Part shown: positions 1 through 37,760 of the stretch, in pieces | Numbering within the stretch: position 1 is the stretch's first letter | Layout: each line of letters begins with the position of its first letter | Assembly (NCBI GenBank): GCA_016214565.1 | Contig: JACROE010000002.1 | Span: forward strand, 280,007-344,006 | Reading direction: 5' to 3' | Length of the DNA: 64,000 nucleotides | From: Candidatus Kerfeldbacteria bacterium | Lineage (GTDB): Bacteria; Patescibacteriota; Patescibacteriia; UBA10025; JAHIVO01 | Notes under the pieces: generated by a model | The model's input: only the letters and a program-made list of their open reading frames with translations | What the model was told of the DNA's origin: nothing | The model's database searches: none | Translations under genes and position numbers: made by a program

Positions 1-1004
1 AGGGCGTCATACATTTCAGGCACCGTCACCTCCATTATCTCATGCGGATTGAAATGTGACCGGCGTGCGATTTCATGATACATGAAACTGGCACCATAAT
101 CGCCGAGAAAAAATGCTTCAACACGGCGATTGCGGGTATAGGAATGCAGACGTGCTTGCGTAATCAGCTTGCGGAAATCAGCATCGGGCTTCACCCGTCC
201 GACTGCCCACCGATACTCATGCAGTGCTTTGCGAGGAGAGGCGTCGCGTATCAACTGATCTATACCTTTGGCGTCTTGCCAAGCGGAACGAATACGACTA
301 ACTATATCAGCAGACGTATACGGCTTACTCGTTGCAAGTCCTCGATTAATATACCCATAGCGCGTCACGTGTCGCTCAATGGCGCGTCGACCAGCTGCTG
401 ACAATGCTGACAGTCGCTCTCCGGACTGCTTGAGCTTTTGAGCTAATTTCATCAGCTCCCATTTCTCCTGCGCCACGTCAGTCATGGCCTTCGGATCGGT
501 AAAGATCAAAACAATCTTTCGAAAATCTGGATGGGTTGCTGGTACATATCGAATTAATTGACTTTCAATTGCATCCTCAAAAAATATATCAATTGGATAC
601 TGCGCATACCACGGACACATTAATTCCCGATAAAAGGTAAGCAGCCGGTCAAGCGTGCGCCGCAGATACTCCGTATTCTTGGTTTGCCAATTAATTTTTT
701 GAAGAACGTGGCCCCACCGATACAGTCGCTCAGATTTGCGGAGTTCGCGCTGGCAATAGCGCTCAATCCACCCATCGTTACGCCGCAGATGACCAATCAC
801 TTCTTTTTCGAATAGATCATATTCCTTTGCCGGCCAATACATCATATGATGCAGGTACACGCGATTCAGTAGATAATGCCTAAATCCTACGCGCCGGGCT
901 ATCTCCTTGGCAAAAGAAGAATTAATGGTGAAACGCAAAAAAATCGGCAACTTGCTAGACGGCTTAATCCTCCATGGACCAAATCGGGCAACAGCAGACG
1001 ACAT
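1..1004 (-). CDS. hypothetical protein, partial (extends beyond window start). Last gene of the giant-protein gene cluster or a separately promoted gene.
   Basis: Hand translation of the reverse strand from ATG at 1004..1002 (MSSAVARFGPWRIKPSSKLPIFLRF...) reads open to position 1. It is absent from the ORF track only because no stop lies in the window. Plus-strand ORFs 75..401 and 876..1082 are shadow frames of it. No recognisable motif. Confidence 0.5.
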   Translation of the reverse strand, partial: MSSAVARFGPWRIKPSSKLPIFLRFTINSSFAKEIARRVGFRHYLLNRVYLHHMMYWPAKEYDLFEKEVIGHLRRNDGWIERYCQRELRKSERLYRWGHVLQKINWQTKNTEYLRRTLDRLLTFYRELMCPWYAQYPIDIFFEDAIESQLIRYVPATHPDFRKIVLIFTDPKAMTDVAQEKWELMKLAQKLKQSGERLSALSAAGRRAIERHVTRYGYINRGLATSKPYTSADIVSRIRSAWQDAKGIDQLIRDASPRKALHEYRWAVGRVKPDADFRKLITQARLHSYTRNRRVEAFFLGDYGASFMYHEIARRSHFNPHEIMEVTVPEMYDA

Positions 1005-1147
1005 AATATTACATTAATAATGAGATGCTCCTCATTTCAATTATACAATCATGGTATCAAATTCTCCCTTATTTTTCAATAAAAAAAGAAGGCACATGAG
1101 CGCCCTCCAGACACGCGGTCTCGCACCGCTAATACCTCACATGAGTG

Positions 1148-2419
1148 CTATTTCTCCGGTATCAGCTTTCCCCCTTCGAGACGAAACGTAGACCACATAA
1201 AGGTTCCGGTCTCCTGATTACCATAGGCAATCGGCTCGTAATCATGGCCGAGTAATTTGCCCAATTCTACCCCCACCAATGCGGAAGCGTTTTCTGACAA
1301 GCCTATCTTTTCTTTGAGGAGATATTGCAAAAATTCTGAAACTAACGGAATATTGACTGCCCCAGCCCGGATACTTGCCACCCAACGCGCTCGATCCTTA
1401 TGAGCAGATGCGCCTCGATATTTTGTGTCGACATACTCTGCCACTGCCTGCAACCAGGCGGGACTAGACTGGAGCGCTGGCACCAGCGCCCCCTCCCGTG
1501 CCAGCAATTTCAATGCAGCAACCAAGGTATTTGTGTCACGCTCGCGTGAAGCAGCGGAGAGTATGCGTTTAATTTTTTGCACATCCCCTTGAGTAGTGGC
1601 CATCAGCCGATCCTCTATCTCCAATACGGGCGCTCGTGATTCCCAATATCGCGCATACAAATTCTTAAGCATTGATAATGTTTCTACGTTGGTGTTAATC
1701 CCTGGCTTTTTGGCAGGAGATTTAATCAGCTCACTTTCTGCGTCCTCGAGTGCATAGTGCTCAAGTAATGGCGTAAAGAGAACATCGAGTAAGCCAGTGA
1801 GAAACACCGATTGAACTCGAGCAAAGAGCATGAGTAAACGTCGCACCATATCTTTGAGGTTGGGCGCGTGACTCAATACAGTTTGAGATTCAAGGAATTG
1901 GATAATCTCCAGAGTGCTAATGGCTTTCGTCGAACTATGAGTGCCGAGCAGCTTCTTAATCCACTCAGCGACGGTCAATACCGATTCGCCTACCTTCGTC
2001 TCATGAGTCCGCACTTCCTCAGTATTATGCGATATCGTCTCAACAATCTTTCTGACCAGAACACTATCCAGCTCGACATCGCGATACAACCGTAACCGCC
2101 GACCAATCAATTCTTCAATGATAACGCCTCTCCGTAAAGCGAGTAATAAATGTTTTTCAAGCAAACGCAATGCAGGCGCTTCATCAAGGAGGGGGAAAGC
2201 AAGATACATCAGTACGATAAAATCATCGCCAATAGCTTCTTTTACCTCTTCGGCACGAGCTAAGGCTGGGTTGCTGAGCGTCCGATCCAAGGCCAAGTAT
2301 AAATCATGGGCATCACCAACCAAATAATTATGCTGAAACTCGTCGACTGCCGCGCGTAATCGCCGTCTGAAATCAGTCTGTTGAATTGAACTTACTGATA
2401 TATCGTTCGGTTCAAGCAT
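1148..2419 (-). CDS. hypothetical cytoplasmic protein, 423 aa, translationally coupled to the upstream VirB6-like gene
   Basis: Long ORF on the minus strand. Its start lies 3 bp after the stop of the 2422..5772 gene. No TM segments, no Walker motifs, no recognisable family. Confidence 0.6.
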   Translation of the reverse strand: MLEPNDISVSSIQQTDFRRRLRAAVDEFQHNYLVGDAHDLYLALDRTLSNPALARAEEVKEAIGDDFIVLMYLAFPLLDEAPALRLLEKHLLLALRRGVIIEELIGRRLRLYRDVELDSVLVRKIVETISHNTEEVRTHETKVGESVLTVAEWIKKLLGTHSSTKAISTLEIIQFLESQTVLSHAPNLKDMVRRLLMLFARVQSVFLTGLLDVLFTPLLEHYALEDAESELIKSPAKKPGINTNVETLSMLKNLYARYWESRAPVLEIEDRLMATTQGDVQKIKRILSAASRERDTNTLVAALKLLAREGALVPALQSSPAWLQAVAEYVDTKYRGASAHKDRARWVASIRAGAVNIPLVSEFLQYLLKEKIGLSENASALVGVELGKLLGHDYEPIAYGNQETGTFMWSTFRLEGGKLIPEK

Positions 2420-2421
2420 AC

Positions 2422-5400
2422 TTAGGATTCAGATGATGTAGTTTCCTCGTCGTCTTCATCTTCTGTTTCTTGTTCAGTCGCATCCCCTGCCTTCTCTTTT
2501 TGACCAGGACGCTGCAATTTTCTTAGCAAATCTCTCATTTCGCGCCAAATCTTCAATTGTTCACCTTGGGGCGCTTGGCGGAATGCTTGGAAATCATTTT
2601 GGCTTAACCCATCAAGTTTATTCCGCAGCGGGTCAATCATTTCATTTTGCATGCGCTTGGCAGTGGCACCAAATTTCTCCGTACCCATATCCCCAAGCGT
2701 CTTGGAAATATTCTCAAGCGCTTCTTGGGCTTTATCCAATGCTGCCACCATCTGATCCTGTGACACCACACTCTGATCCATGCGGGAAACCATAGCGTTC
2801 AAGGCTTGCATTGGAGACATAGCTGCTTGAACTTCAGGATTATCATACGCCTCATCCGGTAATGCGAGATCCTCTGTAGGTACATCAGCCACTAGTTGAT
2901 CACGTCCTTCTGCTGATGAACCGCTCGTGCCAGGGCCGCCGGGTACAACTTCCACCTTGGGTTGCGGGGCGCTCGGTTTGGCTTTAGATTTTTTCTTAGA
3001 CTTAGATGTTTCTTCGCCAGTATCGCTCGTATCTTCACCTTCTTCATTGTCAGCGCCTGCATCAGTCTCGTCATCTCCACCATCTTCTTTTTTGCCTTTA
3101 TCATCTTTTGCTTTCTTATCTTCTGACTTTTCAGTGGTAAATGCTTTAGCAATTGATTTTTCACTATCACCTAGCTTGCCAACTTCTTTACCATCGAGAT
3201 AGAAATCAGCAACAGCTTTTAGTTGCTCGGCGAGTTTTTGCTTTTCTTCATCAGAAACGTCTTTCCCGCTGATTACTCCAGTAGCTTTATCAACTTGTAG
3301 GTCAGCGTTAGGATTCTTATCTTTTGCTTTTTTCTGAGCATTTTCAATAATTAAATCAAAAATATTCTGCACGTTACCCTTTACCTCACCAGTTTCATAA
3401 TCTATTTCCTGGAACTTCACCAATCCATCACCGCCCATTTTCTTCCAGAATCCTGCTGGCGCTTGATACCACTCATCAATCATATGGAACATACGCTCTT
3501 TATCAACCTTATCCCCCAGCATCGCGCCTGTTTCTTTGTCAATTTCTTCATCAGTACCGCCCATCATGGCGCTGGCAGTACGAACCTGGGAGTGCTCATT
3601 GATCTTATTGGCTGGCTGAGAGCGGAACGTGGCGAGAAACGCCGCTTCATTAAAGCTATCCATCTCGCCCCCTGTCATCCGACGTATATTGGCGTTTGGA
3701 TCCTTCACTAGCTCGCCAGTCTTTTCATCTTTCAAAACCTTGCCATCTTTATCCCTCATGAATTCATCAACCACAAAACGGCCATTCTTTTTAACAAAAT
3801 TACCCTTATCGTCCTTTAAGAATTTCTTAACTTCGCGTAAATTAGTAAATGTATGCGGTGATGCGCCAAGCTGAGCACGGCCCGTACCCTTCTTGTATTC
3901 ACTCATGGCTTTGCTGACATCATCTTTGGCCAGCCATTTATAATGACCAGTCTTGGCATCGTAGGTATTATGCCCTCCATATTCCTCGTGCTTGACCTTC
4001 TTACCAATTTCCTCTAATTCATACACCAAACGATGTCCTTGCTCATCGTGTCCATCCGGACCACCGAGAGCATTACGTAAAAATAGATTGAGCTTTTCAC
4101 GCCCGTAAAACCCCTTCTCATCTGCAAATCCCACCTTTTCAACGCCGTTTTCATCCTTCCACTTCGCGTGCTTTTGAAAATATTCATCCTGCATGATGTC
4201 ATCTAAATGCCCTCCTTCAGCTGCAATCCGAATCAATGAGCGCATACGGCGCTGATATTCCGATTTCTTCGGATCCTTTTGCAAACCCTCATACAGTAGT
4301 CGAGCTGACTCCGCCTTTTCTTCTTTATTCATGCCGTGATAATCTTTGGCAAATTGGGACTCCAGCGCCGCCTCAGCCCGGTCTATGTGCGGAATCTTTA
4401 CTTTGCCGCCAGTTGAAACGCGTTCCCAAAACTGACGACCTTTTGCCTGAGCGACCGTACGAGTCATTCGATCAAGTTCTTCACCACGCTCTCGAGCACC
4501 TTTCACGATGTTCCACGGCTGCATCACCGCCGGCGCTCGATCCTCATACCAGCGCCGTACGCGTCGACCCTGGCTGGTAGCAAGCGCTTTTGCCCCGTCG
4601 CCCGCCCATTTAGCCGGAGCGGCAGCAATGCGCAATGACGACGAACCCGCTTTCTTCAATTTATCGCTAAACTGTCCGGCAATCCGACCAGCGGTTCCAC
4701 CCAAACTTGAGGCAACTGCCAATGAAATACCCAACATAGATATGCCCAGAATAAACCCGAGCATATTCTGAGAATTTGAAACATCCGAGATGGTGGCGGT
4801 CACAGTTGAAGTCGAATCAATAACATTGCTTTCCCCAATCTGAGTCGAACCAATAAGGTTTGGATGAGCCGTCATCACCGCTAGGGACAACCACAAGAAA
4901 AAGGCAAGTATTGGTCCGGTCGTCACCCATTTGCCAAACGTGCTCCACCACTGACTACTGTATTTGGACGTCATGGGGAACGATGCTGCTAAATAGGCAA
5001 GCGGCGATAAGACAACGAGTACCCATAGCGCAATCAATCGAATCAGTAACATAACTAATATGACCACCATGACCATCAGTGCCACAATCAGCAAAATAAC
5101 CGCGAGGGCTGGCGCCGCCACCATTTCAAATGGTGTAACACTTGAAAGATTTGGGTTATTACCCAAAAAATTCAACATATCCCGCAGTTTCAAGACCGAG
5201 GTAAAATTAGCCGCGGCAGTATCGGCAAATGCATTGACGAATGTCAGCATCACCACCTGACCAAAATCAATAAAGAAACCAGCGATCAATTTCGAAAAAT
5301 TAATCAGCACGGCCATGATGACGAGTTTCGGCAATAATCGCTGATAGCGATATGACTCAATTTTCAAAATAGTACCAAAAGCAATAACGAGCAGCACTAA

Positions 5401-5772
5401 CACAAAAAACATGTTCGACACGTCTCGCACGACAGTCCAGCCTTGTTCAATTACCGGCGATGTCGAAAAATCATTATATTGAGCGATGTCAACAATAATG
5501 TCGATAATCACAATCAGTAATTTCCCGAGCAGTGACGCGACCCACAATAATACATTAGCAAATGCAGACGCTAACGCACTGGTAACGATACCGCCAATGG
5601 TTGTATTAGTTGGCTCTTTTGTCTGCGCGATGGCCTGCCAACCAATGCCAAAAGTTCCGGCAACCACAAATACCAAAACCGCCGCGATGGCCAAGGTAAT
5701 TTTCAGCCGCGGACGGGTAGATATATAGCTCATGATGGTATGCACGAATTGGCGCATACGAATATTATTCAA
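2422..5772 (-). CDS. polytopic membrane protein, 1116 aa, with a VirB6/TrbL-like N-terminal domain (~330 aa, 6-8 predicted TM helices) and a ~780-aa hydrophilic, highly charged C-terminal tail
   Basis: The N-terminus has multiple long hydrophobic stretches (LAIAAVLVFVVAGTFGIGW; LLWVASLLGKLLIVIIDIIV; MFFVLVLLVIAFGTIL; LVIMAVLINFSKLIAGFFIDFGQVVMLTF; ALAVILLIVALMVMVVILVMLLIRLIALWVLVVLSPLAYL; ILAFFLWLSLAVM). This arrangement resembles TrbL/VirB6 family proteins. The tail is rich in K/D/E/G repeats (KDGKVLKDEKTGELVKD...; KKAKDDKGKKEDGGDDETDAGADNEEGEDTSD) and coiled-coil-like segments. Confidence 0.7.
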   Translation of the reverse strand: MNNIRMRQFVHTIMSYISTRPRLKITLAIAAVLVFVVAGTFGIGWQAIAQTKEPTNTTIGGIVTSALASAFANVLLWVASLLGKLLIVIIDIIVDIAQYNDFSTSPVIEQGWTVVRDVSNMFFVLVLLVIAFGTILKIESYRYQRLLPKLVIMAVLINFSKLIAGFFIDFGQVVMLTFVNAFADTAAANFTSVLKLRDMLNFLGNNPNLSSVTPFEMVAAPALAVILLIVALMVMVVILVMLLIRLIALWVLVVLSPLAYLAASFPMTSKYSSQWWSTFGKWVTTGPILAFFLWLSLAVMTAHPNLIGSTQIGESNVIDSTSTVTATISDVSNSQNMLGFILGISMLGISLAVASSLGGTAGRIAGQFSDKLKKAGSSSLRIAAAPAKWAGDGAKALATSQGRRVRRWYEDRAPAVMQPWNIVKGARERGEELDRMTRTVAQAKGRQFWERVSTGGKVKIPHIDRAEAALESQFAKDYHGMNKEEKAESARLLYEGLQKDPKKSEYQRRMRSLIRIAAEGGHLDDIMQDEYFQKHAKWKDENGVEKVGFADEKGFYGREKLNLFLRNALGGPDGHDEQGHRLVYELEEIGKKVKHEEYGGHNTYDAKTGHYKWLAKDDVSKAMSEYKKGTGRAQLGASPHTFTNLREVKKFLKDDKGNFVKKNGRFVVDEFMRDKDGKVLKDEKTGELVKDPNANIRRMTGGEMDSFNEAAFLATFRSQPANKINEHSQVRTASAMMGGTDEEIDKETGAMLGDKVDKERMFHMIDEWYQAPAGFWKKMGGDGLVKFQEIDYETGEVKGNVQNIFDLIIENAQKKAKDKNPNADLQVDKATGVISGKDVSDEEKQKLAEQLKAVADFYLDGKEVGKLGDSEKSIAKAFTTEKSEDKKAKDDKGKKEDGGDDETDAGADNEEGEDTSDTGEETSKSKKKSKAKPSAPQPKVEVVPGGPGTSGSSAEGRDQLVADVPTEDLALPDEAYDNPEVQAAMSPMQALNAMVSRMDQSVVSQDQMVAALDKAQEALENISKTLGDMGTEKFGATAKRMQNEMIDPLRNKLDGLSQNDFQAFRQAPQGEQLKIWREMRDLLRKLQRPGQKEKAGDATEQETEDEDDEETTSSES

Positions 5773-5792
5773 ACAAAATCATTTCAGTCTTC

Positions 5793-8700
5793 TTAGGGAT
5801 TCACGTTGGCAGTCACGCCGGTAGCAAACCAGCCCTGGTTGGCACATGGCGAGCCATCGACCTGATAGCGGCAATCACCGCTTGGACAGCTCGAACCGGT
5901 GCCCTTGAGCACGCCGCACCAGTCCCAATTATCAATCACCCTGATACGGATCGGATAGGCTCCGCCAGTGGTATATTCATGCGTGACAAACACCGTGCCA
6001 GAATCATAGGTTCCCACTGAGGAATAATCAGCATTACCGTCATTGTCGAAGTCTACTTCAATCAATTTAACCGGCTTCTGATTCGGATCGGCATTGACAT
6101 TGAAGGTCAGCTGAACCAATTGTCCGACACTGACATTCTGACAGCCGCTGGTTGATGGCTGTCCGCCCGCACCACACAAGACGGTATCAATCACTGGAGG
6201 CACGCCACAATAATCATTGGGATACAACGGACGCTCAGCGGCACCCTTAGGCGCACTATACGGACAGACGGACATATTCGCATATTGGCCAATCCAGGTC
6301 GCCGGCAAATTTGTTGCACCAACTAAATTGGTCGTATCTTCGACATACCCAGCCGTTGCGTTATCCCAGCGCCAGGCCAGGAAAGGCCGCGCAAATAACC
6401 GTCGGAGTCGATCATTACCCTGGGGAATAGTAGTGATAGGAGAAGCACCACCACCGCCCAAGAGGCACGGACCAAAATCATTAACTCCCGAAAGACAATC
6501 TGAATTAACCCGACAATATATTTCTGCATTATTTGAGCAGAACCCTTCACCCAACCCGAGACAATATCCATCATCTGACGAATCATCCGGATCGGGTCCC
6601 TCGAGACAGGCTCGCTGCAGCGATTGGGTCGAACAGTCATTATCTAAATTCCAGCTGCACATACGGCCAGCACAGCCACCACTGGGACAGCTATAGGATG
6701 ACCCTCCATGTGCCAGCGTGTCATCAGATTTATTTTCAATATAAATTGGTCCGCTGCCTACCCCATTATCCCAGCGCCAGGCAGAGGGTGTCGAAATCGC
6801 CGGACTCGGCTGAATGATGCCTCCATACGGAGTCGTGTGCTGATGATAGCGATACAGTAAATCAGGTAATAGATAGGGTGAATTCGTGTTCGTGCGCTCA
6901 AACCACGCTTTGTCATCATCCCAGGTTACCACTGAGGCAATCGACGTACACATTTCATTAAGTCTAAATATTCCCTGCACCCAAGCACCACCGCCGTTAT
7001 TGCCATCGGTCATGGTTACCGTATATGACTGCAATCGATTATTTGCTGCCCAATTTACCCGTACCCGAATGCTGTTACCCGAGCACGACCAAGTGGCATC
7101 CCAATTATTTCTAGCATTGAGAATAAAGATTGACCGACCTTCATCGGTAGCCGTAGTATTGCAATCCCAATCCGTATGTGCCCATCGTTGCATAACAAAA
7201 TTTATATCCCGGACTTCCCATTTATAATACTGATCCCCCACTGCGGCATTGTAGGTCGAATTAATGGCATTGCACGTCCCTCCATCACCTGCATCGCACG
7301 CGCCACAAACTCCCGTTTTAAATTGACAATTTGATGCAGGCACCGTTCCGGCCATATTACCCGCCTCATCACACTCACCCGTACCAGACTGATTAACGAT
7401 AATGGTCGACATGGGGCCGCGGTACCGATAGCTCAGATTGAGTAAGGGGGAGATGGGGAAAGAAATGCCACAATTACCCCGGGTAGTGCCCGCACTATCT
7501 GAATTTACCGTTGCCCCGGAAAAGGTTGTCTGATTTGCTCCGCGAATATCTTTTGGAGTCGAATAATTCCCTTCCGCACCCAGACACATATAGAGTGGGC
7601 GACGGCCGGAGTAGCCAGTAATTTTCAGTGAGCTAAATGCGCTTGAATCACCTTTCAATAAATCAACCGGCCACCAATTAAGGCAATATTTCGGATAGCG
7701 AGGATCATGTTCTAGACAATAACCTTCCCAGCCTTTATGGGTTGTGTTATTTTCGTCAGTGTAGGTACAATAGGGCGAATCGACTCCAGGGAATAAACGA
7801 CAATCTCGCGATAACAACCCCTGGTCGCTTTCTTTCGTTTGCAAAACTGGCTTCATAGAAACATCGTCCAGATAGAACTCAACGGAGGGAACCGTATCCC
7901 CACTTTGGAAATTGTGGACGATTTCCAAGCGAATACTATCAAAATCAACCGGTGCGCCACTATTGGTGTCTCCGATGCGAATTGGACCATACACATATTC
8001 TTTCCAATTCACCGTCGGCGCAAAGTCGCCAACTGTTTTATAATCAAGCTCATTTCCATTTGCATTGACATAGGCAAATTGTACGCGCACAGTATCATAG
8101 GCTGATGCAGGCACACCCCAGCGCAATCTGAAGGAAACGTAATACTCTTCTGATCGCTGAGCTGACTTATGCAGGTCATAATATATACCATTCCAGTTGG
8201 CAGTGCCGGCGCCAACATTACCGCTGGTTTTGACGCGAGCAACGTTGTTTTCATCTAAATTCCCGCTGGTGGATGGGATAGTGCCATTATTAATATCTTC
8301 CTCAGCCCAGGTAACGACCGCCGTGCCTCCCTGCAGATTGCGTGGCTGCCACGCCGTATCAAGGTTAACCAAGGCAATCTCAGTAGCATTAAATAATCCA
8401 GGCGTTTCTACGCAGGTATCGCTTGAGGCGCTCAGCGGGCATGATAATTTTTGATTGAGCGCGTAATCACGATCACCGAAATCCCCATCTTCAATAATTT
8501 CTCCATTAATACTGATAGAACCAACCTCTTCCATAGCCGCAACGGGCAAGCTTCCCTCATATATCTGCGGATCGTCGCAGGTGCCACTGCCGCACTGCGC
8601 GTCAGAGGTGCAGGTGATGGATGGATTATTAGTGCAGCGACGGTCCCAGTCCAGCCCTGCCATCACCAGCCCAGTGTAATTCTGAATCTTGCTCACGAAA

Positions 8701-11700
8701 GCGGGTGAATCGTACGTCTGATTCACACTTTCAAATTCGCCGACTTTGGTGCACTGCCCAGTCTCCGGATCCAATTCCTCACAGACGTATCGCGACAAAC
8801 ATAATTCCTCGACATTCCCCTCAGCGTCTTCCTGCCGGACTGACGTTTCACACTCAAGCCAGCGTTTGCACTCACGATCTCGAATAACCTTAATCACCGC
8901 GTTTGAATCGCACTCATTAGGATCAGCGCAGAGCGCGGGCGTTTCGCCATCAACTGAAAGAGTCGAAACATACGGCAATTCGGAATTCGACGTATCATTG
9001 AAGAGGCGACAGCCTTCCTCTCGATCCACCAGACCATTGCAACTCGCTTGATCAACAGTTTCATCAATATAATAGTACGGTACATAGTCAAAGACATCGG
9101 CCACTTCAACGATTGAAAAACTGTCAATCAAAATATCGCAGGTATTCGGGGAAGGCGAGAAACTGCCGGCTGGTACGCTCCGACGAATCACCATGGAGAA
9201 ATTATTCTGTAGTTCTTCGACAGAGCCGGACGTATTATACCAGTCGTCGGGGTCAACTGAACCAAAGGTAACGACATTTTCAAACGTGGTCCACGAATTC
9301 GTCGCATTAAAATTACTGTACGGTCGATAATCAGTTCGACCATTTGGCCAAGCGCGATTATCAATCGTTCGCACCAACCCAAATCCGATATCGGTGTTTC
9401 CGCTGTTTGACGGATCGCAGGTGGCATCATTTGGGTCAAGCCGCGCCTGGAACGACACTTTGAACGCACGATTATCAGTAATGCTATCAGTATTCACCCC
9501 ATACCAGATATAGCGCGCCTGGTCGCCGAGACAATAATCACTAGCGCCACAATCAGCGTCACTGGTACATGTCGTGGCACTATTAATCGCGCAATGGTAT
9601 GTGATTGAACTATTAACGCTCTTGCCGCAGGCATCATACGTCTTTACGCGCGCCGCCACATTGCCGGTATTCGATTGGGAATCAGCGTGCATGCGCAAAC
9701 CGCAGGCCACCCGCTGAGACGTGTCACACACCCCTGCGCCATGAGCACTACAGTTCACATTAGTATTACAGGTTCGATTGGCATCACCGGTACAGCGTCC
9801 TGCTGACGTCTGTGAGCTCGCCCACGGAGTGAACACATCCGGCAACGCGGTATCAATAACACCATCAGTGGCGATACTTGCATTAGCCGTAGTCGTAAAC
9901 GTTTCAAATCCGCCGTTCTCTGAATAATTGCGCGATACAATTTCCCCGCCGGTCTGCACTTGCTCTGGATCACGATACTCGGTGCAGCCCGAGGCGCCCG
10001 ATGAACACGCGCCGACCCAGCCATCAACTGGCTGCGGTACAATGTTTTGATTGCGGTTGCAGAAATTGCTATCACAGTCGCTGGAGGCATTGCATATTTT
10101 CCCGTCATTCGCTCCGCCACCCGAACAAATACCAATAGACACGGGGCAATTTGGCGCGCCTTGGTCGGTGCCGAGCTTGTACCAGCCAGATATATCTTGG
10201 CCGGATACTCGCTTGAATTCACACAGTTTTTGTCCCGGATCTTTGAAATAATATTGAGAGCCATTTGCCGAGGTGAAGGCATCACACTGATTCTCTGCGA
10301 AAACGCACATTTCCTGACCAAAGCGATCAGGATCAACCACGAGATAGGTATCAGTAAATGCAGTCACGTTACCATCACCATCCAAGCCGGGTTTTCCAAG
10401 CTGAGTACAGCCAGCTTGATTTGCACCACATACCTTCTCCGGATCATCCACGATATATACCGTCTCATCTTCAGGCGTGGTTCCTTCCTCGAAATAATAC
10501 GGTTCAGCGGGTGAGGTGCCATTATTGATGTGATTCAGGAGCGCGACGGCATCGGCAATATTAATCGCTCCATCAATATTCACATCGCCGACTGCAGGTG
10601 AAACATTAAGGAAGTAATTATCCGCCCCACTAAAATGTTCGTTCATGAGCGTGACATCGTCAGCCGACAGCCGCCCGTCATAATTAACGTCGCCGCGTAA
10701 ATAACGCTCACGAGTAAATGTCGAACTGTATGGACTGGTGCTCTGCTGCGTCGCAATCATCGCCGTGCAGCCAACTTTATCTTCACCACAGAGACGACTA
10801 AATGATTTCAGGAAATGCTGGTTGCCATCGCGGTCGCTATATTCATCACAACCTTCATAACCAGAGCACTCTTTGTACGATCCTTTTACTTTATAAATAT
10901 TTTCCACCACCTCGCTGATGACAATATTATCAATATAGAAAGCATTATTGGAGAAGAGGACTAATTGCGCGTTGGCTGGATCCGCACCAACAGGAACAAA
11001 GACGGGACCGACGGTAAATCGGTTCCACAATTCACCCGCTGACGCTTGGCCAGTGAAGCTCAGTGACGGCGTGGTGTTGAGGGCAAATGAAACATTGGTT
11101 GTGCCAGCGATCGCCGATCGCGCCCAGAAGGTAATGGTGTACTGGTTACCCGCGGCAAACCCAAGTGTGTCGCCTGCATTATTAATCGCCGCACTATTTG
11201 ACACCAGCATGGAGTGGCCACCGGCGCTGGTCGCCTCAGTGGAAATGCTGGCATTGCCCGTCCAGGCGCCGATTGATCCATCTTCAAAATCCTTCACATA
11301 GAGATCACGTGAATTATCACCGGCATTACCCTTATAGGCGCGGCATCCGGCATAGGCAGCCTGACAGCTGATACCTTGGCCGGGTACCATATGATACACC
11401 ATATTCGGGCCGTCATTCGAATTGCGGAAATTCTTACAGTCCTCCGAGGCAAAGATAACGCGCGAGCGCAGCAAATAATACGTGACACCCGCCGTATCAT
11501 AGTACTCAGTACAATCAGGATTGACGCCAACCTGATCAGGACTACAGGTCGCCGGATTATAGAATTCTTCATCCGTTCCGTTACCATCACGATCAACCGA
11601 ACCACCATCGATACAGGTGGGCCAGGTAGAACCGAGCTGCGCCTGAATGATCGGATCTCCTTCCGCTCCCATATTAGTACAGGGGCCATCATTTTGATTA

Positions 11701-14700
11701 CTCTTCTTCAGACTGTACTCACGTAATTGGAATCCAAATTCATTCGAACCCTCCCAGGTATAGTAGGTGCGCTGCTGTGGATCATCGCTCGGTACACACA
11801 TTCGAATATAACTATAGTACTCCTTCCCTTCGCCACCCTGGGCGACGGTTTCGAGATTCGTGTACTCCTCACAGCCGACGGCTGAAGCGGGGCAGGATTG
11901 TCCGCTGTCAGGCACGAATGAAACCGGATCACGCAGAGCGCGATACGGCGGACGCTCAATGGCTAATTCGCGGAAGGCTGAACACCCGACAAATTCCGCG
12001 GGGCACTGATCACACGAGCCAGGAACGTTCGGGTCGCACAGGCCCGGCGATGAGATAACGCCCGTCACGGTTCTGCCATTATTTACCGAGGTGTATGCCT
12101 GGCAACCAAGCTCCAACATGCTACACGAATCCGCCTGTTTCAAAAATGTTTTCGGATTCTGGTCGTATGACTTATAGGCGGTCAAATTGCCTTCTTCAAA
12201 CTGAATATTATCAACGATGATATCGCATTGATCTGTTTGGTCGCGATGAATTGATAAGGCGATGGCATTATATTCATCAGACGCTACCTCGGGTACGGTA
12301 AATGTACCTGAATATCGTGTCCAACCATCCGTTGCCGTCACCGTGCCAAAATTTGCCTCGGTACCGACCCCGCTGCCAAATGGCAAATAATATAACGTTG
12401 CCTTGCCGTTGCTCCCCGTACAATCCGTATCATCCGCAGCAGTCTTTGCATAAAACGATAAACTATAGCTGCGACCCTCCACTCGCTCACCCATGAGTAG
12501 CCCCGCTGGTTGATTTACATTCCAGAGCATCCGACCTCCATCAGTAAAGGTGCCGGTACCCGAAGCCGGGAAGCCTGGGCAATCAGCTGCGTGGGTGGCA
12601 AGCCGAATGGCGGTAAACCCTTCATAGGCATCGGAAACCGCTAGCGTCGACAAGCCGCAATTTGGAGTTCCGCTCAAGTCCTGACCGCTTACCCAACCCT
12701 GAAAATGATCAGCCACGGGACTATCCTTAAGCGCATCATAAATTCCAGCTGCAGTCCGATCGTACGTTTCAAAATCAGTATTCGTCAAAACGTTTGCGCC
12801 ACTGCCTAAACGCGGGATGTACTCAGTACAACCAGCAGCTGATGAATCACACTGTCTAATATCATTATTAAAACTAAGTTTGGCGCCGCTACCAGTAGCC
12901 CCTGGCGGTTTGCCATTACACTCAAAAGTCCGGGTAGTATTATTATAACTGGAACAATACCACTGACAGCCGGCGTTGTCGGCATTGCATCCATTGGTTT
13001 CAACTGTATTGAGCAAATATGAAACAACGGTACCGTCTGATTTCGTTAATGATTGACAGCTGGCAAACTGAGCATCACACTGGGTGCCACTAAATTTCCA
13101 GACTGGCTTGTCCTCCACACAATACCCATACCGAGCGCACGACCCATCGGCATTTTCCTGGAGACACAACTGTTCATCAGCGCAATAATCGCCCTGACGC
13201 TGAACGACAGCAGTGGCCGCGTCTTTAGTATCAATCCGACCATCGCCATTGGTATCTTCATTGCGGATCGGGGTATTGGCGATAATCTGCTCACCCGCAC
13301 CCTGGCGACGACAAAATACTTCGGGAGATTTGAGCACCCAATTCGGATCGACTAATTTATAGAACGGCGATTCGATATCATCATAGTCAGCGATGAGCGT
13401 ATTCAAACTATAGTTTCCTGAGGCAAACTGTTTGCCATACTGAGCAGCCAATTCCCAACCAACTGGAATGATCCGATATTTGCGCAAGATTAATAAGCTG
13501 CGATACGGGTACCCATTATAATATTCTGGCTCCAGCCCATTCGAATCAAAACCAAACGGCTTGCTTCCATCAATCAAGCCCTGCTCCAGAGCCTGCCGCA
13601 GGGTGAGCTCCTGCTCAATGGCAGTGCGGAAACGAGTATCAATCACGCAATTCGTCGGTGTCGGATTATTTGGATCAGGACAGCTCGATAGATTGCCTAA
13701 TATATCAGTGGTACCCGCTACTGAGTAATTGGTATTTTGTAAATCAGCAAACAAAAATTTTGCTGCCGTCACCCCAGGCGATGAGCCGCCCAAGAAACTG
13801 GCGATACCACTCCGGCCGCCGCTCCCGCTCGATGTAGCCGGATCGACACCGAAGATATACCGCTGGATGAGTTTGCTGGCAAGCGTATTGGTAAAGATAC
13901 CGACCGCGTCGGCGATGGCGGTACCCGTATAGGTCAAATACGGATCAATCGATTTACCAAATATGCTCGTGGCGGCATTACTAAGAAGACCAGCAGGCGT
14001 TTTCACCGCGCCGCTTATCTTGCTCTTAACCGGTTTGAATTCTCCGGCTAAACTCTGAGCAAATTTATTAATCTCAACTTCAGCGTCACTCGCAGCCTTA
14101 CCTTTATTCAAAATATCAAGGTAGGCGCCCAACTGAGTCGCCTCAGGATTAAATGTCTTAGAAAATTCTACTAAATACTGTTTATTAGGATTCGTCTTAC
14201 CTAGTAACCCCTCATAATTATCAATCGCAGTTCGGTATTCGTCATACTTATCGATAATGTCAGTCAGCGGACATCGGCCACTAATGCTCGCACCACCCTG
14301 ATCGGTTAACGCTTTTCGAGCCAAAACATTGAGCTTAATCTGAATCGAACGATCATTAGGACCGCCTGGGCCAGGCAGGTCACATAAACTAAAATTACTA
14401 GCACACTCTGGTGCGCCATATTCAAAATGATAATCATTCGATAAATCGCTGTCCACGATAGCGTCCACCTCAGGACAATCTTCGGTACTACAGGTAATTA
14501 AGCGACAACCAGCGGCAATACATTTATTTTTTTCCTCGATACTGGAGGTACAGCCCGTCACCTCGAGACTATCGGGACACAATAAATATGATTCAGGACA
14601 CGATGAATCCGCTTTACATTTGCTACCAGTGTACCCCGAGCACTCCGTCTTCCCCAGCCAATCTGAGGCAATTGAATCGAGAAAATCACCAGCTGCCGCA

Positions 14701-15056
14701 TCGCCTGCCTGTTTTAATAACTCCTCTGGCTTAGTGACGAAAAGCGGCTTTTGACCTTTTTCGCCTGTGGCGATTTGCACCGCGACATTGTATGCCAAAT
14801 TATTTAAATACGTACGCAATATATTTTTGAACCCGACGTCAGCCGCGGTCTTCAATGTCTTGCTCAAAATTTCATAAATGGTCCGTGGAATATCACCGAC
14901 GGTGATGCTCACATCCCCAATGCCAAACAACGCCCGTGCCTGCATCGGAACGACCAGAATCGGAATAGCTAATTGCAAAACAAAAAACACCATGGCTCCG
15001 GCGAGTATCAATCGCTGTCCTTTGCTCAAATGGTGATTTTGTTTTGTAGACGACAT
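5793..15056 (-). CDS. giant (3087 aa) cysteine-rich extracellular/surface protein. It has an N-terminal signal anchor, many Cys-rich modules, one dockerin-like calcium-binding repeat pair and a C-terminal PKD-like domain.
   Basis: Single uninterrupted ORF. The N-terminus has a hydrophobic anchor (LILAGAMVFFVLQLAIPILVVP). Paired cysteines are very frequent (e.g. CSGYTGSKCKADSSCPESYLLCPDSLEVTGCTSS...). The dockerin type-I-like tandem motif DVNYDGRLSADDVTLMNEHFSG...GDVNIDGAINIADAVALLNHIN is encoded near 10520..10700. The C-terminus reads VDFDNDGNADYSSVGTYDSGTVFVTHEYTTGGAYPIRIRVIDNWD (PKD-like), encoded near 5800..6100. Confidence 0.85.
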   Translation of the reverse strand: MSSTKQNHHLSKGQRLILAGAMVFFVLQLAIPILVVPMQARALFGIGDVSITVGDIPRTIYEILSKTLKTAADVGFKNILRTYLNNLAYNVAVQIATGEKGQKPLFVTKPEELLKQAGDAAAGDFLDSIASDWLGKTECSGYTGSKCKADSSCPESYLLCPDSLEVTGCTSSIEEKNKCIAAGCRLITCSTEDCPEVDAIVDSDLSNDYHFEYGAPECASNFSLCDLPGPGGPNDRSIQIKLNVLARKALTDQGGASISGRCPLTDIIDKYDEYRTAIDNYEGLLGKTNPNKQYLVEFSKTFNPEATQLGAYLDILNKGKAASDAEVEINKFAQSLAGEFKPVKSKISGAVKTPAGLLSNAATSIFGKSIDPYLTYTGTAIADAVGIFTNTLASKLIQRYIFGVDPATSSGSGGRSGIASFLGGSSPGVTAAKFLFADLQNTNYSVAGTTDILGNLSSCPDPNNPTPTNCVIDTRFRTAIEQELTLRQALEQGLIDGSKPFGFDSNGLEPEYYNGYPYRSLLILRKYRIIPVGWELAAQYGKQFASGNYSLNTLIADYDDIESPFYKLVDPNWVLKSPEVFCRRQGAGEQIIANTPIRNEDTNGDGRIDTKDAATAVVQRQGDYCADEQLCLQENADGSCARYGYCVEDKPVWKFSGTQCDAQFASCQSLTKSDGTVVSYLLNTVETNGCNADNAGCQWYCSSYNNTTRTFECNGKPPGATGSGAKLSFNNDIRQCDSSAAGCTEYIPRLGSGANVLTNTDFETYDRTAAGIYDALKDSPVADHFQGWVSGQDLSGTPNCGLSTLAVSDAYEGFTAIRLATHAADCPGFPASGTGTFTDGGRMLWNVNQPAGLLMGERVEGRSYSLSFYAKTAADDTDCTGSNGKATLYYLPFGSGVGTEANFGTVTATDGWTRYSGTFTVPEVASDEYNAIALSIHRDQTDQCDIIVDNIQFEEGNLTAYKSYDQNPKTFLKQADSCSMLELGCQAYTSVNNGRTVTGVISSPGLCDPNVPGSCDQCPAEFVGCSAFRELAIERPPYRALRDPVSFVPDSGQSCPASAVGCEEYTNLETVAQGGEGKEYYSYIRMCVPSDDPQQRTYYTWEGSNEFGFQLREYSLKKSNQNDGPCTNMGAEGDPIIQAQLGSTWPTCIDGGSVDRDGNGTDEEFYNPATCSPDQVGVNPDCTEYYDTAGVTYYLLRSRVIFASEDCKNFRNSNDGPNMVYHMVPGQGISCQAAYAGCRAYKGNAGDNSRDLYVKDFEDGSIGAWTGNASISTEATSAGGHSMLVSNSAAINNAGDTLGFAAGNQYTITFWARSAIAGTTNVSFALNTTPSLSFTGQASAGELWNRFTVGPVFVPVGADPANAQLVLFSNNAFYIDNIVISEVVENIYKVKGSYKECSGYEGCDEYSDRDGNQHFLKSFSRLCGEDKVGCTAMIATQQSTSPYSSTFTRERYLRGDVNYDGRLSADDVTLMNEHFSGADNYFLNVSPAVGDVNIDGAINIADAVALLNHINNGTSPAEPYYFEEGTTPEDETVYIVDDPEKVCGANQAGCTQLGKPGLDGDGNVTAFTDTYLVVDPDRFGQEMCVFAENQCDAFTSANGSQYYFKDPGQKLCEFKRVSGQDISGWYKLGTDQGAPNCPVSIGICSGGGANDGKICNASSDCDSNFCNRNQNIVPQPVDGWVGACSSGASGCTEYRDPEQVQTGGEIVSRNYSENGGFETFTTTANASIATDGVIDTALPDVFTPWASSQTSAGRCTGDANRTCNTNVNCSAHGAGVCDTSQRVACGLRMHADSQSNTGNVAARVKTYDACGKSVNSSITYHCAINSATTCTSDADCGASDYCLGDQARYIWYGVNTDSITDNRAFKVSFQARLDPNDATCDPSNSGNTDIGFGLVRTIDNRAWPNGRTDYRPYSNFNATNSWTTFENVVTFGSVDPDDWYNTSGSVEELQNNFSMVIRRSVPAGSFSPSPNTCDILIDSFSIVEVADVFDYVPYYYIDETVDQASCNGLVDREEGCRLFNDTSNSELPYVSTLSVDGETPALCADPNECDSNAVIKVIRDRECKRWLECETSVRQEDAEGNVEELCLSRYVCEELDPETGQCTKVGEFESVNQTYDSPAFVSKIQNYTGLVMAGLDWDRRCTNNPSITCTSDAQCGSGTCDDPQIYEGSLPVAAMEEVGSISINGEIIEDGDFGDRDYALNQKLSCPLSASSDTCVETPGLFNATEIALVNLDTAWQPRNLQGGTAVVTWAEEDINNGTIPSTSGNLDENNVARVKTSGNVGAGTANWNGIYYDLHKSAQRSEEYYVSFRLRWGVPASAYDTVRVQFAYVNANGNELDYKTVGDFAPTVNWKEYVYGPIRIGDTNSGAPVDFDSIRLEIVHNFQSGDTVPSVEFYLDDVSMKPVLQTKESDQGLLSRDCRLFPGVDSPYCTYTDENNTTHKGWEGYCLEHDPRYPKYCLNWWPVDLLKGDSSAFSSLKITGYSGRRPLYMCLGAEGNYSTPKDIRGANQTTFSGATVNSDSAGTTRGNCGISFPISPLLNLSYRYRGPMSTIIVNQSGTGECDEAGNMAGTVPASNCQFKTGVCGACDAGDGGTCNAINSTYNAAVGDQYYKWEVRDINFVMQRWAHTDWDCNTTATDEGRSIFILNARNNWDATWSCSGNSIRVRVNWAANNRLQSYTVTMTDGNNGGGAWVQGIFRLNEMCTSIASVVTWDDDKAWFERTNTNSPYLLPDLLYRYHQHTTPYGGIIQPSPAISTPSAWRWDNGVGSGPIYIENKSDDTLAHGGSSYSCPSGGCAGRMCSWNLDNDCSTQSLQRACLEGPDPDDSSDDGYCLGLGEGFCSNNAEIYCRVNSDCLSGVNDFGPCLLGGGGASPITTIPQGNDRLRRLFARPFLAWRWDNATAGYVEDTTNLVGATNLPATWIGQYANMSVCPYSAPKGAAERPLYPNDYCGVPPVIDTVLCGAGGQPSTSGCQNVSVGQLVQLTFNVNADPNQKPVKLIEVDFDNDGNADYSSVGTYDSGTVFVTHEYTTGGAYPIRIRVIDNWDWCGVLKGTGSSCPSGDCRYQVDGSPCANQGWFATGVTANVNP

Positions 15057-15085
15057 GTATGGGGAACGAAACGTGAGCTAAGTGC

Positions 15086-15955
15086 TTACTGTGAATTCGT
15101 ATTAGTACCCTGGGTGTTTTGCTCTAAACTTTCCTGAAAAATACTCAACAGCGTGGCATCGTCAACTTCTGCAAGCGTTTCCTCGGGCACTCCGCTCTCG
15201 ATCAAAAATTGTCTAATCTCTTCAACGGATAAATTCTGCAATGTCTCAAGAGTGATAGTGCCGCCAGTATTGTTTCCAGTTGCAGCATTGTTTGTATTTG
15301 TATCGCCACGTTCATTGAGCAATTGCTGATAGGTCTCAAGCAATTCGTCGTCGGGGATTTGACCTAATAATTCTTCAGATGCGCCAGCGTCGCGCAGAAT
15401 CTTCCGCAGTTCATCCGAGGTGAGATTCTCTGGATCAACCACACCGGCGGCAGAATTTGTATTGTCGTCCGGCTTTATATCACCAAAAATACCGTTAACC
15501 ACCGTGTTTACATTGCCCGCCACAGTCCGAGCGCAATTTTCACCAGATGGGCAATTTGGATCGGTTCCCTGATCAATTTCCTGCTTATCAGTCAATCCAT
15601 CGCTATCACTATCGGCGATGTAGGCGCTAGTTTTGTACCCATAGAACTCATTGTAGTCGGACAGCCCATCACCGTCGGTATCCTTAGTGCGGAGACCCTC
15701 GATACCCGTTAACTGGGTATTGGTGCTTTGGTCTCCCGTCGCCACTGAGCTATTCGCATTAACCTTAGGCCGGAATGGATCGCGCAATGCATCAGCGATA
15801 TACCAACTACCGAAGCCAAGCGCTAGAAAACTTAAAATAACGAGACTGATAAAAGCCCGCTTCTGGATGCGCTGTTCTTGCGCTGATTGCCCCACATACT
15901 CATCGGAAAATAGTTTACGGAGAACATTTTGCTTTTCATTTTTCTCCATCAGCAA
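15086..15955 (-). CDS. membrane-anchored protein (289 aa) with thrombospondin-type-3-like calcium-binding repeats and two ~35-aa helical internal repeats. It is the first gene of the giant-protein operon.
   Basis: N-terminal TM segment (ISLVILSFLALGFGSWYIA). DxDxDG motifs (DTDGDGLSDYNEF; DSDSDGLTDKQEID). Internal repeats LTSDELRKILRDAGASEELLGQIPDDELLETYQQLL and LSVEEIRQFLIESGVPEETLAEVDDATLLSIFQESL. GGAG ribosome-binding site 8 nt before the ATG. Confidence 0.7.
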   Translation of the reverse strand: MLMEKNEKQNVLRKLFSDEYVGQSAQEQRIQKRAFISLVILSFLALGFGSWYIADALRDPFRPKVNANSSVATGDQSTNTQLTGIEGLRTKDTDGDGLSDYNEFYGYKTSAYIADSDSDGLTDKQEIDQGTDPNCPSGENCARTVAGNVNTVVNGIFGDIKPDDNTNSAAGVVDPENLTSDELRKILRDAGASEELLGQIPDDELLETYQQLLNERGDTNTNNAATGNNTGGTITLETLQNLSVEEIRQFLIESGVPEETLAEVDDATLLSIFQESLEQNTQGTNTNSQ

Positions 15956-15975
15956 ATCTCCATTTATGTGTGCCC

Positions 15976-16004
15976 ATTATATCACAATCTGGCCGTAATG
16001 TCAA
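15976..16004 (-). promoter_or_regulatory. consensus sigma70 promoter (TTGACA - 17 nt - TATAAT) driving the giant-protein operon
   Basis: The minus-strand sequence reads tttgacattacggccagattgtgatataatggg. The -35 element is at 15999..16004 and the -10 element at 15976..15981. It lies 20 nt upstream of the 15955 start codon and immediately downstream of the rsmA stop. Confidence 0.6.
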
Positions 16005-22200: not shown

Positions 22201-22263
22201 ATCCCGCTTCCAGGATTCCTGCCAGCGTTGCTCAACTTCCGAATGATTGTAGTGTTTCCGCAT
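19237..22263 (-). CDS. leuS: leucyl-tRNA synthetase carrying an inserted ~190-aa alpha/beta serine-hydrolase-like domain at the start of the CP1 editing domain
   Basis: HVGH (HIGH-class) motif at P-Y-P-S-A-Q-G-L-HVGH. KMSKS motif present (QKMSKSRGN). RNWIGRSEG...TTRPDT are the conserved CP1 flanks. Between them lies an extra segment (aa ~241-432; nt 20980..21555) with IILHGYQGSP and GHSLG motifs. The track start at 22275 is GTG. The ATG at 22263 (MRKHYNHSEVEQRW) is the more likely start. Confidence 0.93.
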   Translation of the reverse strand: MRKHYNHSEVEQRWQESWKRDQVWRVSDTASGDSSYVLDMFPYPSAQGLHVGHPEGYTASDIYTRYLRARGKSVLHPMGFDSFGLPAENYAIKTGTHPAKTTAENIANMRRQIQSLGFSYDWSREVITSDPKYYRWTQWIFVQLFKHGLAYEADAPINWCPKDKTGLANEEVVDGKCERCGTPVTKKQIKQWLVKITDERYIERLLHGLDTVDWPESIKLLQRNWIGRSEGATIHFPIEAQWPKRVIILHGYQGSPDTGFKVWLRAELEKHGTRVDAPQLSIEEMPSLEENLKIVKSLKPDSDTVILGHSLGCVLALEAVQQLGLKLAGLVLLAPPHVPAQPNVTYPAGVSQYSDYDYDVKKINRQVPRITVIGDTHDDLVAPAEPKALAELLGAHLIMEQAPRPHYANRELGSFAVPTVLAAIASGANQQVTVFTTRPDTIFGATYVVLSPEHSLVGLITTDKQRSAVEQYQKEAAAKSDLERTDLAKNKTGVFTGAYAVNPVNDKKMPIWIADYVLSTYGTGAIMAVPAHDERDHAFAQKFKLPIVPVIQPDRVMPKMQPPMGSAGAWGTLDSDIEYTCWTGDGEMINSGEYNGMDSVEFKKKIIAWLEKKDLGKTSINYKMRDWLFSRQRYWGEPIPIVHCAKCEAAAVPEKDLPVTLPDVEKYEPTGTGESPLAAIESWVNTTCPECGGPAKRETNTMPQWAGSNWYFLRYCDPHNDKQLADPEKLKAWLPVDMYVGGAEHAVLHLLYARFIYKFLFDIGAVPNECGEEPFVKLKNQGIILGEDGQKMSKSRGNVINPDDVVKEYGADVLRMYEMFMGPFEDAKPWSTKGIIGVRRFVERVWEIFDRVERGKTEVGSTLLHQTIQSVSEKIELFRFNTCISDLMKLTNEWGTASVAQTSFERFLQLLAPFAPHLAQELWHQLGHTTYIENEGWPKFDPAKIVKTEATYAIQVNGKLRDTLVMPTDAPQEVVVEKAKTSVAVQRHLTGEPKKVIFVPKKLVNFVV

Positions 22264-36132: not shown

Positions 36133-36144
36133 ACAGATATAAAG

Positions 36145-36468: not shown

Positions 36469-36490
36469 AGAATAATGAAATAATAAATTA

Positions 36491-36745: not shown

Positions 36746-36747
36746 AG

Positions 36748-37738: not shown

Positions 37739-37760
37739 AATAGCAATTTTTTCTAAACTC

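Follow-up and report, generated by a model that had tools for sequence, protein, structure and literature searches.

Organization of the operon

A 64-kb stretch of the genome of Candidatus Kerfeldbacteria bacterium (hereafter the window), part of a 1,116,013-bp contig, was analyzed with a focus on a minus-strand operon of four genes, which encode a predicted calcium-binding anchor protein (gene A), a giant cysteine-rich protein (gene B), a VirB6/TrbL-like membrane protein (gene C), and a soluble protein (gene D). The supplement of PMC12102498 places Kerfeldbacteria under class ABY1. The four open reading frames (ORFs) are arranged head to tail at 15086-15955, 5793-15056, 2422-5772, and 1148-2419, with intergenic gaps of 29, 20, and 2 bp. 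Gene A was called as 289 aa and probably encodes 287 aa from the ATG at 15949, which is preceded at a distance of 8 nt by GGAG. The giant encoded by gene B has 3087 aa. The ORF call for gene C gives 1116 aa from a TTG, and the NCBI product (HZC01_01400) has 1111 aa from the ATG at 5757; with this start the second gap becomes 35 bp. Gene D (423 aa, HZC01_01395) starts 2 bp past the virB6 stop codon and is probably translationally coupled to virB6.

A sigma-70 promoter with the sequence TTGACA-17-TATAAT and a TG extended -10 element is located at 15976-16004 on the minus strand, ~20 nt upstream of gene A, and scored 12/12. The perfect sequence occurs only once in the 64 kb, compared with 0.04 occurrences expected from shuffled sequences. 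In all 12 related loci that show the region ahead of the anchor gene, a promoter with a 17-bp spacer and the TG is present (seven scoring 12/12, four 11/12, and one 10/12). Directly after gene D, a hairpin of nine pairs followed by a T-run resembles an intrinsic terminator (1087-1108, minus strand). Promoter-like and terminator-like matches inside the operon were at chance level. The next gene, a paralog of a family with a PEP-utilizers domain, extends from ~1004 and has its own promoter-like site at 1079-1051. The ORF and promoter scans agree with the first-pass annotation, made from the DNA letters, which had described four minus-strand genes with these gaps behind one strong promoter. Its statement that the operon lacks an ATPase and a pilin was likewise borne out, and none of ATPase, pilin, or secretin was found in either the operon or the 64-kb window.

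An independent Logan assembly (run SRR12113407) was identical to window positions 422-15757, with 0 mismatches. The possibility of a chimeric giant ORF had been named at first pass; since the second assembly is identical, the 9.3-kb ORF is not a chimera of one assembler.

Gene C encodes a predicted extended VirB6/TrbL protein

VirB6 is a polytopic component of type IV secretion system (T4SS) channels and makes up their inner-membrane and stalk portion. Hydropathy analysis of the gene C product revealed seven to eight hydrophobic segments between aa 25 and 355, and the VirB6 membrane domain, with ~7-8 hydrophobic helices, was placed at aa ~30-360 (4693-5685, minus strand; AlphaFold pLDDT ~90). 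In the AlphaFold model, which was built with 65 homologs and has a mean pLDDT of 78.7, the helices of this part span residues 55-92, 101-130, 138-182, 209-257, 264-296, and 329-351. They are followed by a folded alpha/beta domain, presumed to be cytoplasmic, at aa ~415-875 (3148-4530, minus strand; pLDDT >90 over aa 410-870). A disordered linker of ~80 aa with acidic and basic residues (aa 880-961) then leads to a C-terminal helical bundle (aa 962-1085; 2503-2874, minus strand). The first-pass annotation had proposed a polytopic VirB6/TrbL-like protein with a ~780-aa K/D/E-rich tail. The former part of this description stands, whereas the tail appears to be mostly a folded domain and not low-complexity sequence, because AlphaFold is confident over aa 410-870. 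The folded domain had no match in Pfam and no sequence or fold relative in the PDB among the matches listed.

Relatives of gene C were found in at least 553 genomes by a pattern scan with one genome per species. Judged by title or content, all of them are Patescibacteria, even though "Gammaproteobacteria" stands in several titles of metagenome-assembled genomes (MAGs). Loci L010, L011, L019, and L020 and ~20 others carry the title "uncultured Gammaproteobacteria bacterium" (binchicken co-assemblies) and one is titled Planctomycetota; these look mislabelled. For the analysis of gene context, ORFs were called in 84 loci and searched with the window proteins and with the neighbors found in L001 and L002. 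Locus L004 is the own copy of the genome studied here and is left out of the counts out of 83.

The VirB6 membrane domain was alignable in all 83 loci and is the sole part conserved in all relatives. Its invariant residues are F97, G106, W107, R111, D112, N115, N153, S155, D164, R240, W245, P252, G281, P282, and W289. The folded domain evolves fast, and along its length the number of loci (of 83) that phmmer could align declines from 37 to 3. The tail is nevertheless always present in relatives, because nearly all homologous ORFs measure 820-2190 aa, and in the few below this size a contig end truncates the ORF.

Searches of PHROGs and of PDB sequences with gene C gave nothing, and when the profile of full-length VirB6 was run against the PDB, the only matches were coiled-coil or low-complexity noise from the tail. 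By contrast, TrbL (PF04610) was matched by 10 of 39 relatives at E ≤ 0.01, and these relatives align to the window protein at E ≤ 1e-77. When nine relatives were tested singly, four of them (P0025, P0060, P0084, and P0093) reached the gathering threshold (GA), with 26.0-29.4 bits versus 25.9. The match spans profile positions ~20-185 of 215 and residues ~115-290, which correspond to the family-invariant block that is also present in the window protein. TrbL membership of gene C thus rests on transitivity, since the relatives and not the window protein match PF04610. In a Foldseek search against the PDB, ranks 1-4 were occupied by four chains of R388 TrwI/VirB6, with probabilities of 0.98-1.0. 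A lack of hidden Markov model (HMM) hits to TrbL/VirB6, which the first-pass annotation had regarded as speaking against its assignment, is seen when the window protein is searched alone; this objection is overturned by the family-level HMM matches and two fold searches. These comparisons of profiles and models show gene C to be a predicted divergent, extended member of the VirB6/TrbL family.

The operon is linked to T4SS genes in related genomes

In 48 of the 83 loci, genes for PrgI/VirB3, a TraC-like protein, and VirB4 (DUF87/P-loop_TraG) are located 3.1-8.2 kb downstream on the same strand. In L001 and L002, for example, the gene order seen in the window is followed downstream by the genes for PrgI, the TraC-like protein, and VirB4. 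Immediately upstream of PrgI/VirB3, a conserved ~445-aa protein without a Pfam family is encoded in 50 loci (L001:18837-20171, L002:15113-16450, and 48 other loci). The gene is enlarged to 2-2.9 kb in some loci, where it abuts virB6 in place of gene D. T4SS pilin genes were detected in 13 loci.

We also examined the conservation of the operon itself, as had been suggested at first pass. A giant homolog is encoded upstream of virB6 in 52 of the 57 loci with a flank of at least 9 kb, and the anchor gene immediately precedes the giant gene in 19 of the 22 loci where this position is visible. A detectable ortholog of gene D lies directly downstream of virB6 in 31/83 loci, and the promoter is retained as described above. 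Furthermore, ksgA is located directly upstream of the anchor gene here and in all six to seven relatives in which the position is visible. KsgA is common near Patescibacterial virB4 (PMC12102498), so that the position of ksgA next to the operon matches the published KsgA-virB4 neighborhood.

These results show that genes A, B, and D are conserved neighbors of virB6 across the sampled ABY1 lineages and at least one Paceibacteria-type genome, and that A-B-C-D is an ancient conserved unit, which in most lineages is part of a virB3-virB4 cluster. Because VirB3, TraC-like, and VirB4 genes follow in 48/83 loci, the published Patescibacterial T4SS is the parent system. The earlier view that the gene combination does not correspond to any described secretion or adhesion system is therefore no longer tenable: the operon is the virB6-proximal part of a Patescibacterial T4SS cluster of the MPF-FATA-like type (PMC10633639, PMC12102498). 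Taken together, the operon is probably the membrane and cell-surface module of the T4SS of Patescibacteria (candidate phyla radiation, CPR).

VirB6 belongs classically to conjugation, and a giant ORF in a MAG may be chimeric. Both points could fit an operon without present function, left behind by an integrated conjugative element or produced by faulty annotation or assembly. Such an origin is extremely improbable. The operon is flanked by housekeeping genes (ksgA, tsaC, leuS, and MFS) with even GC content, and the larger window ORFs scanned with Pfam contained no relaxase, integrase, or coupling protein; apart from the operon, these ORFs proved to be housekeeping genes. The ksgA-adjacent position is kept across divergent lineages, the promoter is conserved, and dozens of related genomes contain a giant ORF that is intact and in many cases longer than 2,500 aa. 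Given also the base-for-base agreement of the two assemblies, both the mobile-element and the assembly-artefact readings were rejected.

In Falkowbacteria-type loci, a perfect TTGACA-N17-TATAAT was observed immediately beyond the giant-homolog ORF and ~5 kb ahead of virB6 (L033:4268-4296, L049:5099-5127, L058:4635-4663, and L083:2631-2659). The presence of a perfect promoter after the giant homolog suggests a different operon break in these lineages, with extra genes between the giant and virB6.

The giant protein is cysteine rich and carries putative carbohydrate-binding modules

The giant, predicted to be secreted or anchored in the membrane, contains 122 Cys residues, an even number corresponding to 3.95% of the protein, in line with the cysteine richness reported at first pass. 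An N-terminal transmembrane (TM) or hydrophobic helix is located at aa 17-35, and 12 copies of the motif C-x6-(G)C-x2-[YF] bracket larger modules. The gene C and gene D products, which we refer to as cytoplasmic proteins, contain zero Cys. Among the homologs, the median Cys content was 4.0% (range, 2.3-5.5%).

In the Pfam search, CBM_4_9 (PF02018), which had been overlooked before, matched the giant with 39.4 bits versus a GA of 25.9 (E = 9.8e-10) in two stretches, the better of which lies at aa 1253-1328 (11073-11300, minus strand). CBM_4_9 was likewise found on the giants of L001, L002, L003, and L004. Carbohydrate binding by these modules is a putative assignment from the profile match. A dockerin-type F-hand pair is located at aa 1455-1511 (10524-10694, minus strand). 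Its score with Dockerin_1 (PF00404) was 22.2 bits, just under the GA of 22.9, and the match covers profile positions 2-57 of 57. Dockerin chains in the PDB matched the giant at E values of 0.0098-0.26, and the F-hand motifs GDVNYDGRLSADDVTLMNEHF and GDVNIDGAINIADAVALLNHI (DxNxDGxxxxxD loops) are readable in the translation. The dockerin-like repeat pair noted at first pass is thus seen again. No match to the Cohesin family was found in the four operon proteins with Pfam. The C-terminal PKD-like domain proposed in the first-pass annotation was not upheld. A weak PKD/Ig-like match at aa 2972-3043 (5928-6143, minus strand; PKD_4) is below threshold and not established, with 14.3 bits for the whole protein and 17.9 for the C-terminal 250 aa against a GA of 27 (PF00801/PF18911), and only 2 of 22 orthologous C-termini gave any PKD match at E ≤ 0.01.

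Comparison of the homologs showed conserved blocks at aa 300-750, 960-1450, 1520-1700, 2000-2100, and 2300-2850. The region at aa 1700-2000 is hypervariable, with no more than 3-10 of 54 loci alignable. Two or three genes in a row take the place of a single giant gene in Nomurabacteria-type loci (L002:1-9967, L036:5264-9910, and L051:5338-9978), encoding for example >2046, 1523, and 1545 aa, and the last gene of the split giant matches residues ~2040-2850 of the window giant. The T4SS cluster of the Nomurabacteria genome L002 is closed by a DsbA/Thioredoxin_4 gene (L002:22655-23189), which fits a need for oxidizing the cysteines of the giant outside the cell.

Searches of Pfam, NCBIfam, and PDB sequences detected no adhesin family in the giant and no homology to PrgB-type adhesins, and its translation contains no LPXTG motif. 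We infer from the domain content that the giant may act as an adhesin in host contact. The N-terminal TM helix, the cysteines, the CBM_4_9 modules, and the dockerin pair make plausible the cell-surface, host-interaction role in a small-genome bacterium that had been suggested at first pass.

The giant might alternatively be a substrate or effector of the T4SS, for example a toxin or host-manipulating protein delivered to the host cell, and not a structural or adhesive part. Export of effectors by the Patescibacterial T4SS has been proposed (PMC10633639, PMC11665869), and the gene lies beside virB6 and contains the hypervariable central region. However, the N-terminal signal-anchor helix points to Sec-dependent and not T4SS-dependent export, and the presence of 122 cysteines implies that the protein folds under oxidizing conditions, not in the cytoplasm. 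These two features make the effector reading very unlikely. In addition, no enzymatic or toxin domain was found in the giant by searches of Pfam, NCBIfam, PHROGs, and PDB sequences. The usual T4SS substrates are far smaller than 3087 aa.

Genes A and D

The gene A product has one TM segment at aa 35-53, followed by TSP3_bac repeats and then by two acidic helical repeats, and its D+E content is 17%. TSP3_bac (PF18884) matched in two stretches with 28.1 bits, above the GA of 25. The NCBIfam search gave local repeat matches to MtsD/CglD alone, far under their cut-offs. The TM-anchored protein with TSP3-like repeats described at first pass was therefore found with one TM segment and repeats above the GA. 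These features predict a gene A product that crosses the membrane once and exposes Ca-binding TSP3 repeats outside the cell.

The gene D product has no TM segment, consistent with its earlier description as a 423-aa soluble protein, and is all-helical apart from a small C-terminal β-sheet. The AlphaFold model, built with 116 homologs, has a pLDDT of 91.2 and consists of helical domains at residues 1-215 and 243-397, a disordered linker between them, and the C-terminal sheet. No match was found in Pfam, NCBIfam, PHROGs, or PDB sequences, and no fold relative in the PDB. An exhaustive representative search yielded a family of 1828 database representatives. A gene of the same size also occupies the position of gene D in other loci such as L002, and the L002 gene was confirmed as gene D by a profile search.

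No virB4 was found near the module in this genome

We next considered the arrangement around the operon in this genome and its meaning for the proposed T4SS module. No homolog of the ~445-aa protein was found in the window. Directly after gene D, an array of four to five paralogs of ~475-525 aa occupies window positions 1-1004 on the minus strand and continues into L004:14754-23336. The C-terminal PEP-utilizers mobile domain (PF00391) is the sole recognizable part of these proteins. On the Logan contig beyond the window start, a HAD hydrolase gene and two unknown genes are interspersed with the array. This detached layout, with PEP-utilizers arrays after gene D and without virB4 nearby, recurs in 12 related loci, which are the closest relatives of the window. 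The VirB6 module of this clade thus appears to be separated from virB4 both physically and transcriptionally. This layout poses the question of whether a VirB6 module can act without an adjacent VirB4.

The main rival explanation, which is essentially that of the first-pass annotation, is an autonomous adhesion or attachment apparatus in which the VirB6-like protein has been recruited to export the giant or to give it a platform in the membrane, without a T4SS ATPase. It draws on the own promoter and terminator of the operon, on the lack of VirB4 around it, and on the recurrence in 12 loci of PEP-utilizers arrays in place of virB3/virB4. However, in 48/83 loci the module adjoins virB3, the TraC-like gene, and virB4 without a break and in the same orientation. 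One rearrangement could account for the detached loci, given that no other loci are more closely related to the window. T4SS genes are often divided over separate loci in other bacteria, for example in Rickettsia (cited in PMC12102498), and VirB4 is widespread in Patescibacteria, with 2,474 virB4 genes (PMC12102498). We therefore regard an autonomous apparatus as unlikely, and favor the module of a T4SS.

Several points weigh against the T4SS module. VirB4, VirB3/PrgI, TraC-like, and pilin genes are absent from the 64-kb window and from the 7.6 kb beyond its start, and an operon with its own promoter and terminator could work alone. The VirB6-like protein of the window has no TrbL match in Pfam (E ≤ 0.1) or NCBIfam. 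The Foldseek E values of the TrwI chains are modest (5e-3 to 1.6e-2), with TM-scores of 0.28-0.45 normalized to the target. The candidate adhesin role is drawn from domain content and position. Saccharibacteria, the sole lineage with genetics, have no giant in the T4SS cluster (PMC10633639).

Proposed model

The following model is built on the T4SS module reading. One very strong, conserved sigma-70 promoter would drive all four genes. Proteins A and B would be exported by Sec via their N-terminal signal-anchor helices, and B would fold extracellularly with ~61 disulfides into a long string of β-sandwich (CBM-like), Ca-binding (dockerin-like), and Cx6C hairpin modules. Protein B might then serve as a host-contact arm, in a role like that of the PrgB-type adhesins in Gram-positive T4SSs, by binding glycans of the host cell wall, with the hypervariable region at aa 1700-2000 setting host specificity. 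Protein A, which is acidic, single-pass, and predicted to bind Ca, may help to hold or organize B at the membrane. Protein C would form the membrane channel, and its folded domain, presumably cytoplasmic, together with the helical bundle and protein D, may dock the ATPase or substrates. In the detached clade, where the module appears to be distant from virB4, the two halves of the system would then assemble in trans.

A more far-reaching version, which we put forward tentatively and consider doubtful, holds that the giant and the anchor are a true structural part of the T4SS in many non-Saccharibacterial CPR bacteria. Outside the cell they would act as an arm or conduit in place of both the Gram-positive adhesin and the diderm outer core, with host range determined by the hypervariable middle. 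In the Kerfeldbacteria clade of the window, the VirB6-giant module would then be physically and transcriptionally independent of VirB4, and its present place beside the PEP-utilizers arrays would hint at a second, VirB4-independent use of the VirB6 channel.

The operon provides candidates for the host-contact part of the T4SS, for host-range determinants in the hypervariable region, and for cytoplasmic docking partners. The gene D family and the conserved blocks of the giant can also serve as genomic markers for virB6 loci overlooked by HMM surveys. The survey by Quinonero-Coronel et al. (2025; PMC12102498), which placed the Patescibacterial system near MPF-FATA, counted only 480 VirB6 homologs, compared with the at least 553 species genomes obtained here by pattern scan.

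Other features of the window

Several further observations were made in the window. Upstream of the operon by 6.5 kb and on the opposite strand, a protein with LysM and Peptidase_M23 domains is encoded at 22429-23757 (plus strand). VirB1-like candidates of Patescibacteria often have LysM/Peptidase_M23 domains (PMC12102498). The leucyl-tRNA synthetase (LeuRS; 19237-22275, minus strand; 1012 aa) has a Ser_hydrolase/alpha-beta-hydrolase match at aa 250-404 (E = 1.4e-12). This match corresponds to an insertion that separates the N-terminal catalytic part from the editing domain (aa 431-615) and is unusual for LeuRS. A stretch of low GC content at 36000-40000 (0.43, compared with ~0.50 elsewhere) holds the tRNA genes Ala-GGC, Ala-CGC, and Arg-CCT. 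A tRNA-Ile gene with the anticodon TAT is located at 49407-49482 (minus strand). In most bacteria, AUA is decoded by a lysidine-modified CAT tRNA.

Comparison with known systems

The observation made at first pass is confirmed, and its interpretation is partly supported. The T4SS of Southlakia epibionticum (SEML1_0006-0019) is essential and Gram-positive-like, with added pilins and without a relaxase or coupling protein (PMC10633639). Tables S1 and S2 of that study include two VirB6-like/T4SS proteins of ~1000-1090 aa with helical-repeat C-terminal parts, as well as VirB8-like, PrgI, VirB4, and cell-wall hydrolase proteins, and no giant. The function of the Patescibacterial T4SS has been described as completely unknown (PMC11665869). 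The phylum-wide survey detected no adhesins such as PrgB (PMC12102498), and the words giant, large protein, and Kerfeldbacteria are not in its text. Extended VirB6 is a named class whose function was given as unknown in a 2025 review (PMC12857230). Full-text literature searches for the combination gave nothing closer, and the accessory set around virB6 (giant, anchor, gene D, and promoter) seems to be new to the literature.

The closest resemblance drawn here is to the Patescibacterial T4SS itself (Southlakia, Wang et al. 2023; PMC12102498). Both are found in the same phylum, on the chromosome, beside ksgA and housekeeping genes, and with no relaxase nearby, and both include a ~1000-1100-aa VirB6/TrbL-like protein with a large hydrophilic C-terminal part. 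The relatives of the window also co-orient virB6 with genes for PrgI/VirB3, TraC-like, VirB4, and VirB2-like pilins. However, a giant Cys-rich protein, a TSP3 anchor, and a recognizable gene D are all lacking from the cluster of Saccharibacteria, and the virB6 module of the window differs in that no virB4 was found near it.

The extended VirB6 proteins of Rickettsiales (RvhB6 and VirB6-4 of Anaplasma, up to 4,322 aa; PMC7648143, PMC2653234) resemble gene C, by description, in combining a TrbL/VirB6 core with a large hydrophilic extension. These are also obligately host-dependent, small-genome bacteria in which T4SS genes can be scattered over several loci. In contrast to the present case, Rickettsiales are diderm and possess a VirB7/9/10 core complex. 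In the window, the giant hydrophilic mass is a separate, upstream-encoded, predicted Sec-exported, disulfide-rich protein and not a fusion to VirB6. R388 TrwI/VirB6 (PDB 7o3v and 8rt9) shares 13-15% identity with gene C and differs in that ~260-270 residues are solved and no cytoplasmic domain is present; no VirB5 partner was seen at the window locus. PrgH of pCF10, the Gram-positive VirB6, is set beside gene C by description.

For the giant, PrgB-type adhesins offer a possible parallel as large Sec-exported surface proteins that are encoded in a T4SS cluster and contact the target cell. Unlike them, the giant shows no detected homology, is disulfide-rich, lacks LPXTG, carries CBM and dockerin modules, and exceeds a typical adhesin domain set in size by a factor of five or more. 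It may also be set, by description, beside extracellular proteins rich in Cys that are known from CPR bacteria (from Peribacteria; Anantharaman et al. 2016, PMC4736985) and the giant surface proteins of Vampirococcus (PMC8080830), which are large (~1,650 aa on average), bear signal peptides, and have been proposed to attach to other cells. Those proteins differ in occurring as clusters of such genes with no link to VirB6 or a T4SS. The Patescibacterial T4SS is thus the known element of this locus, and what appears to be new is a conserved accessory surface and cytoplasmic module that in this lineage is probably split from the ATPase genes.

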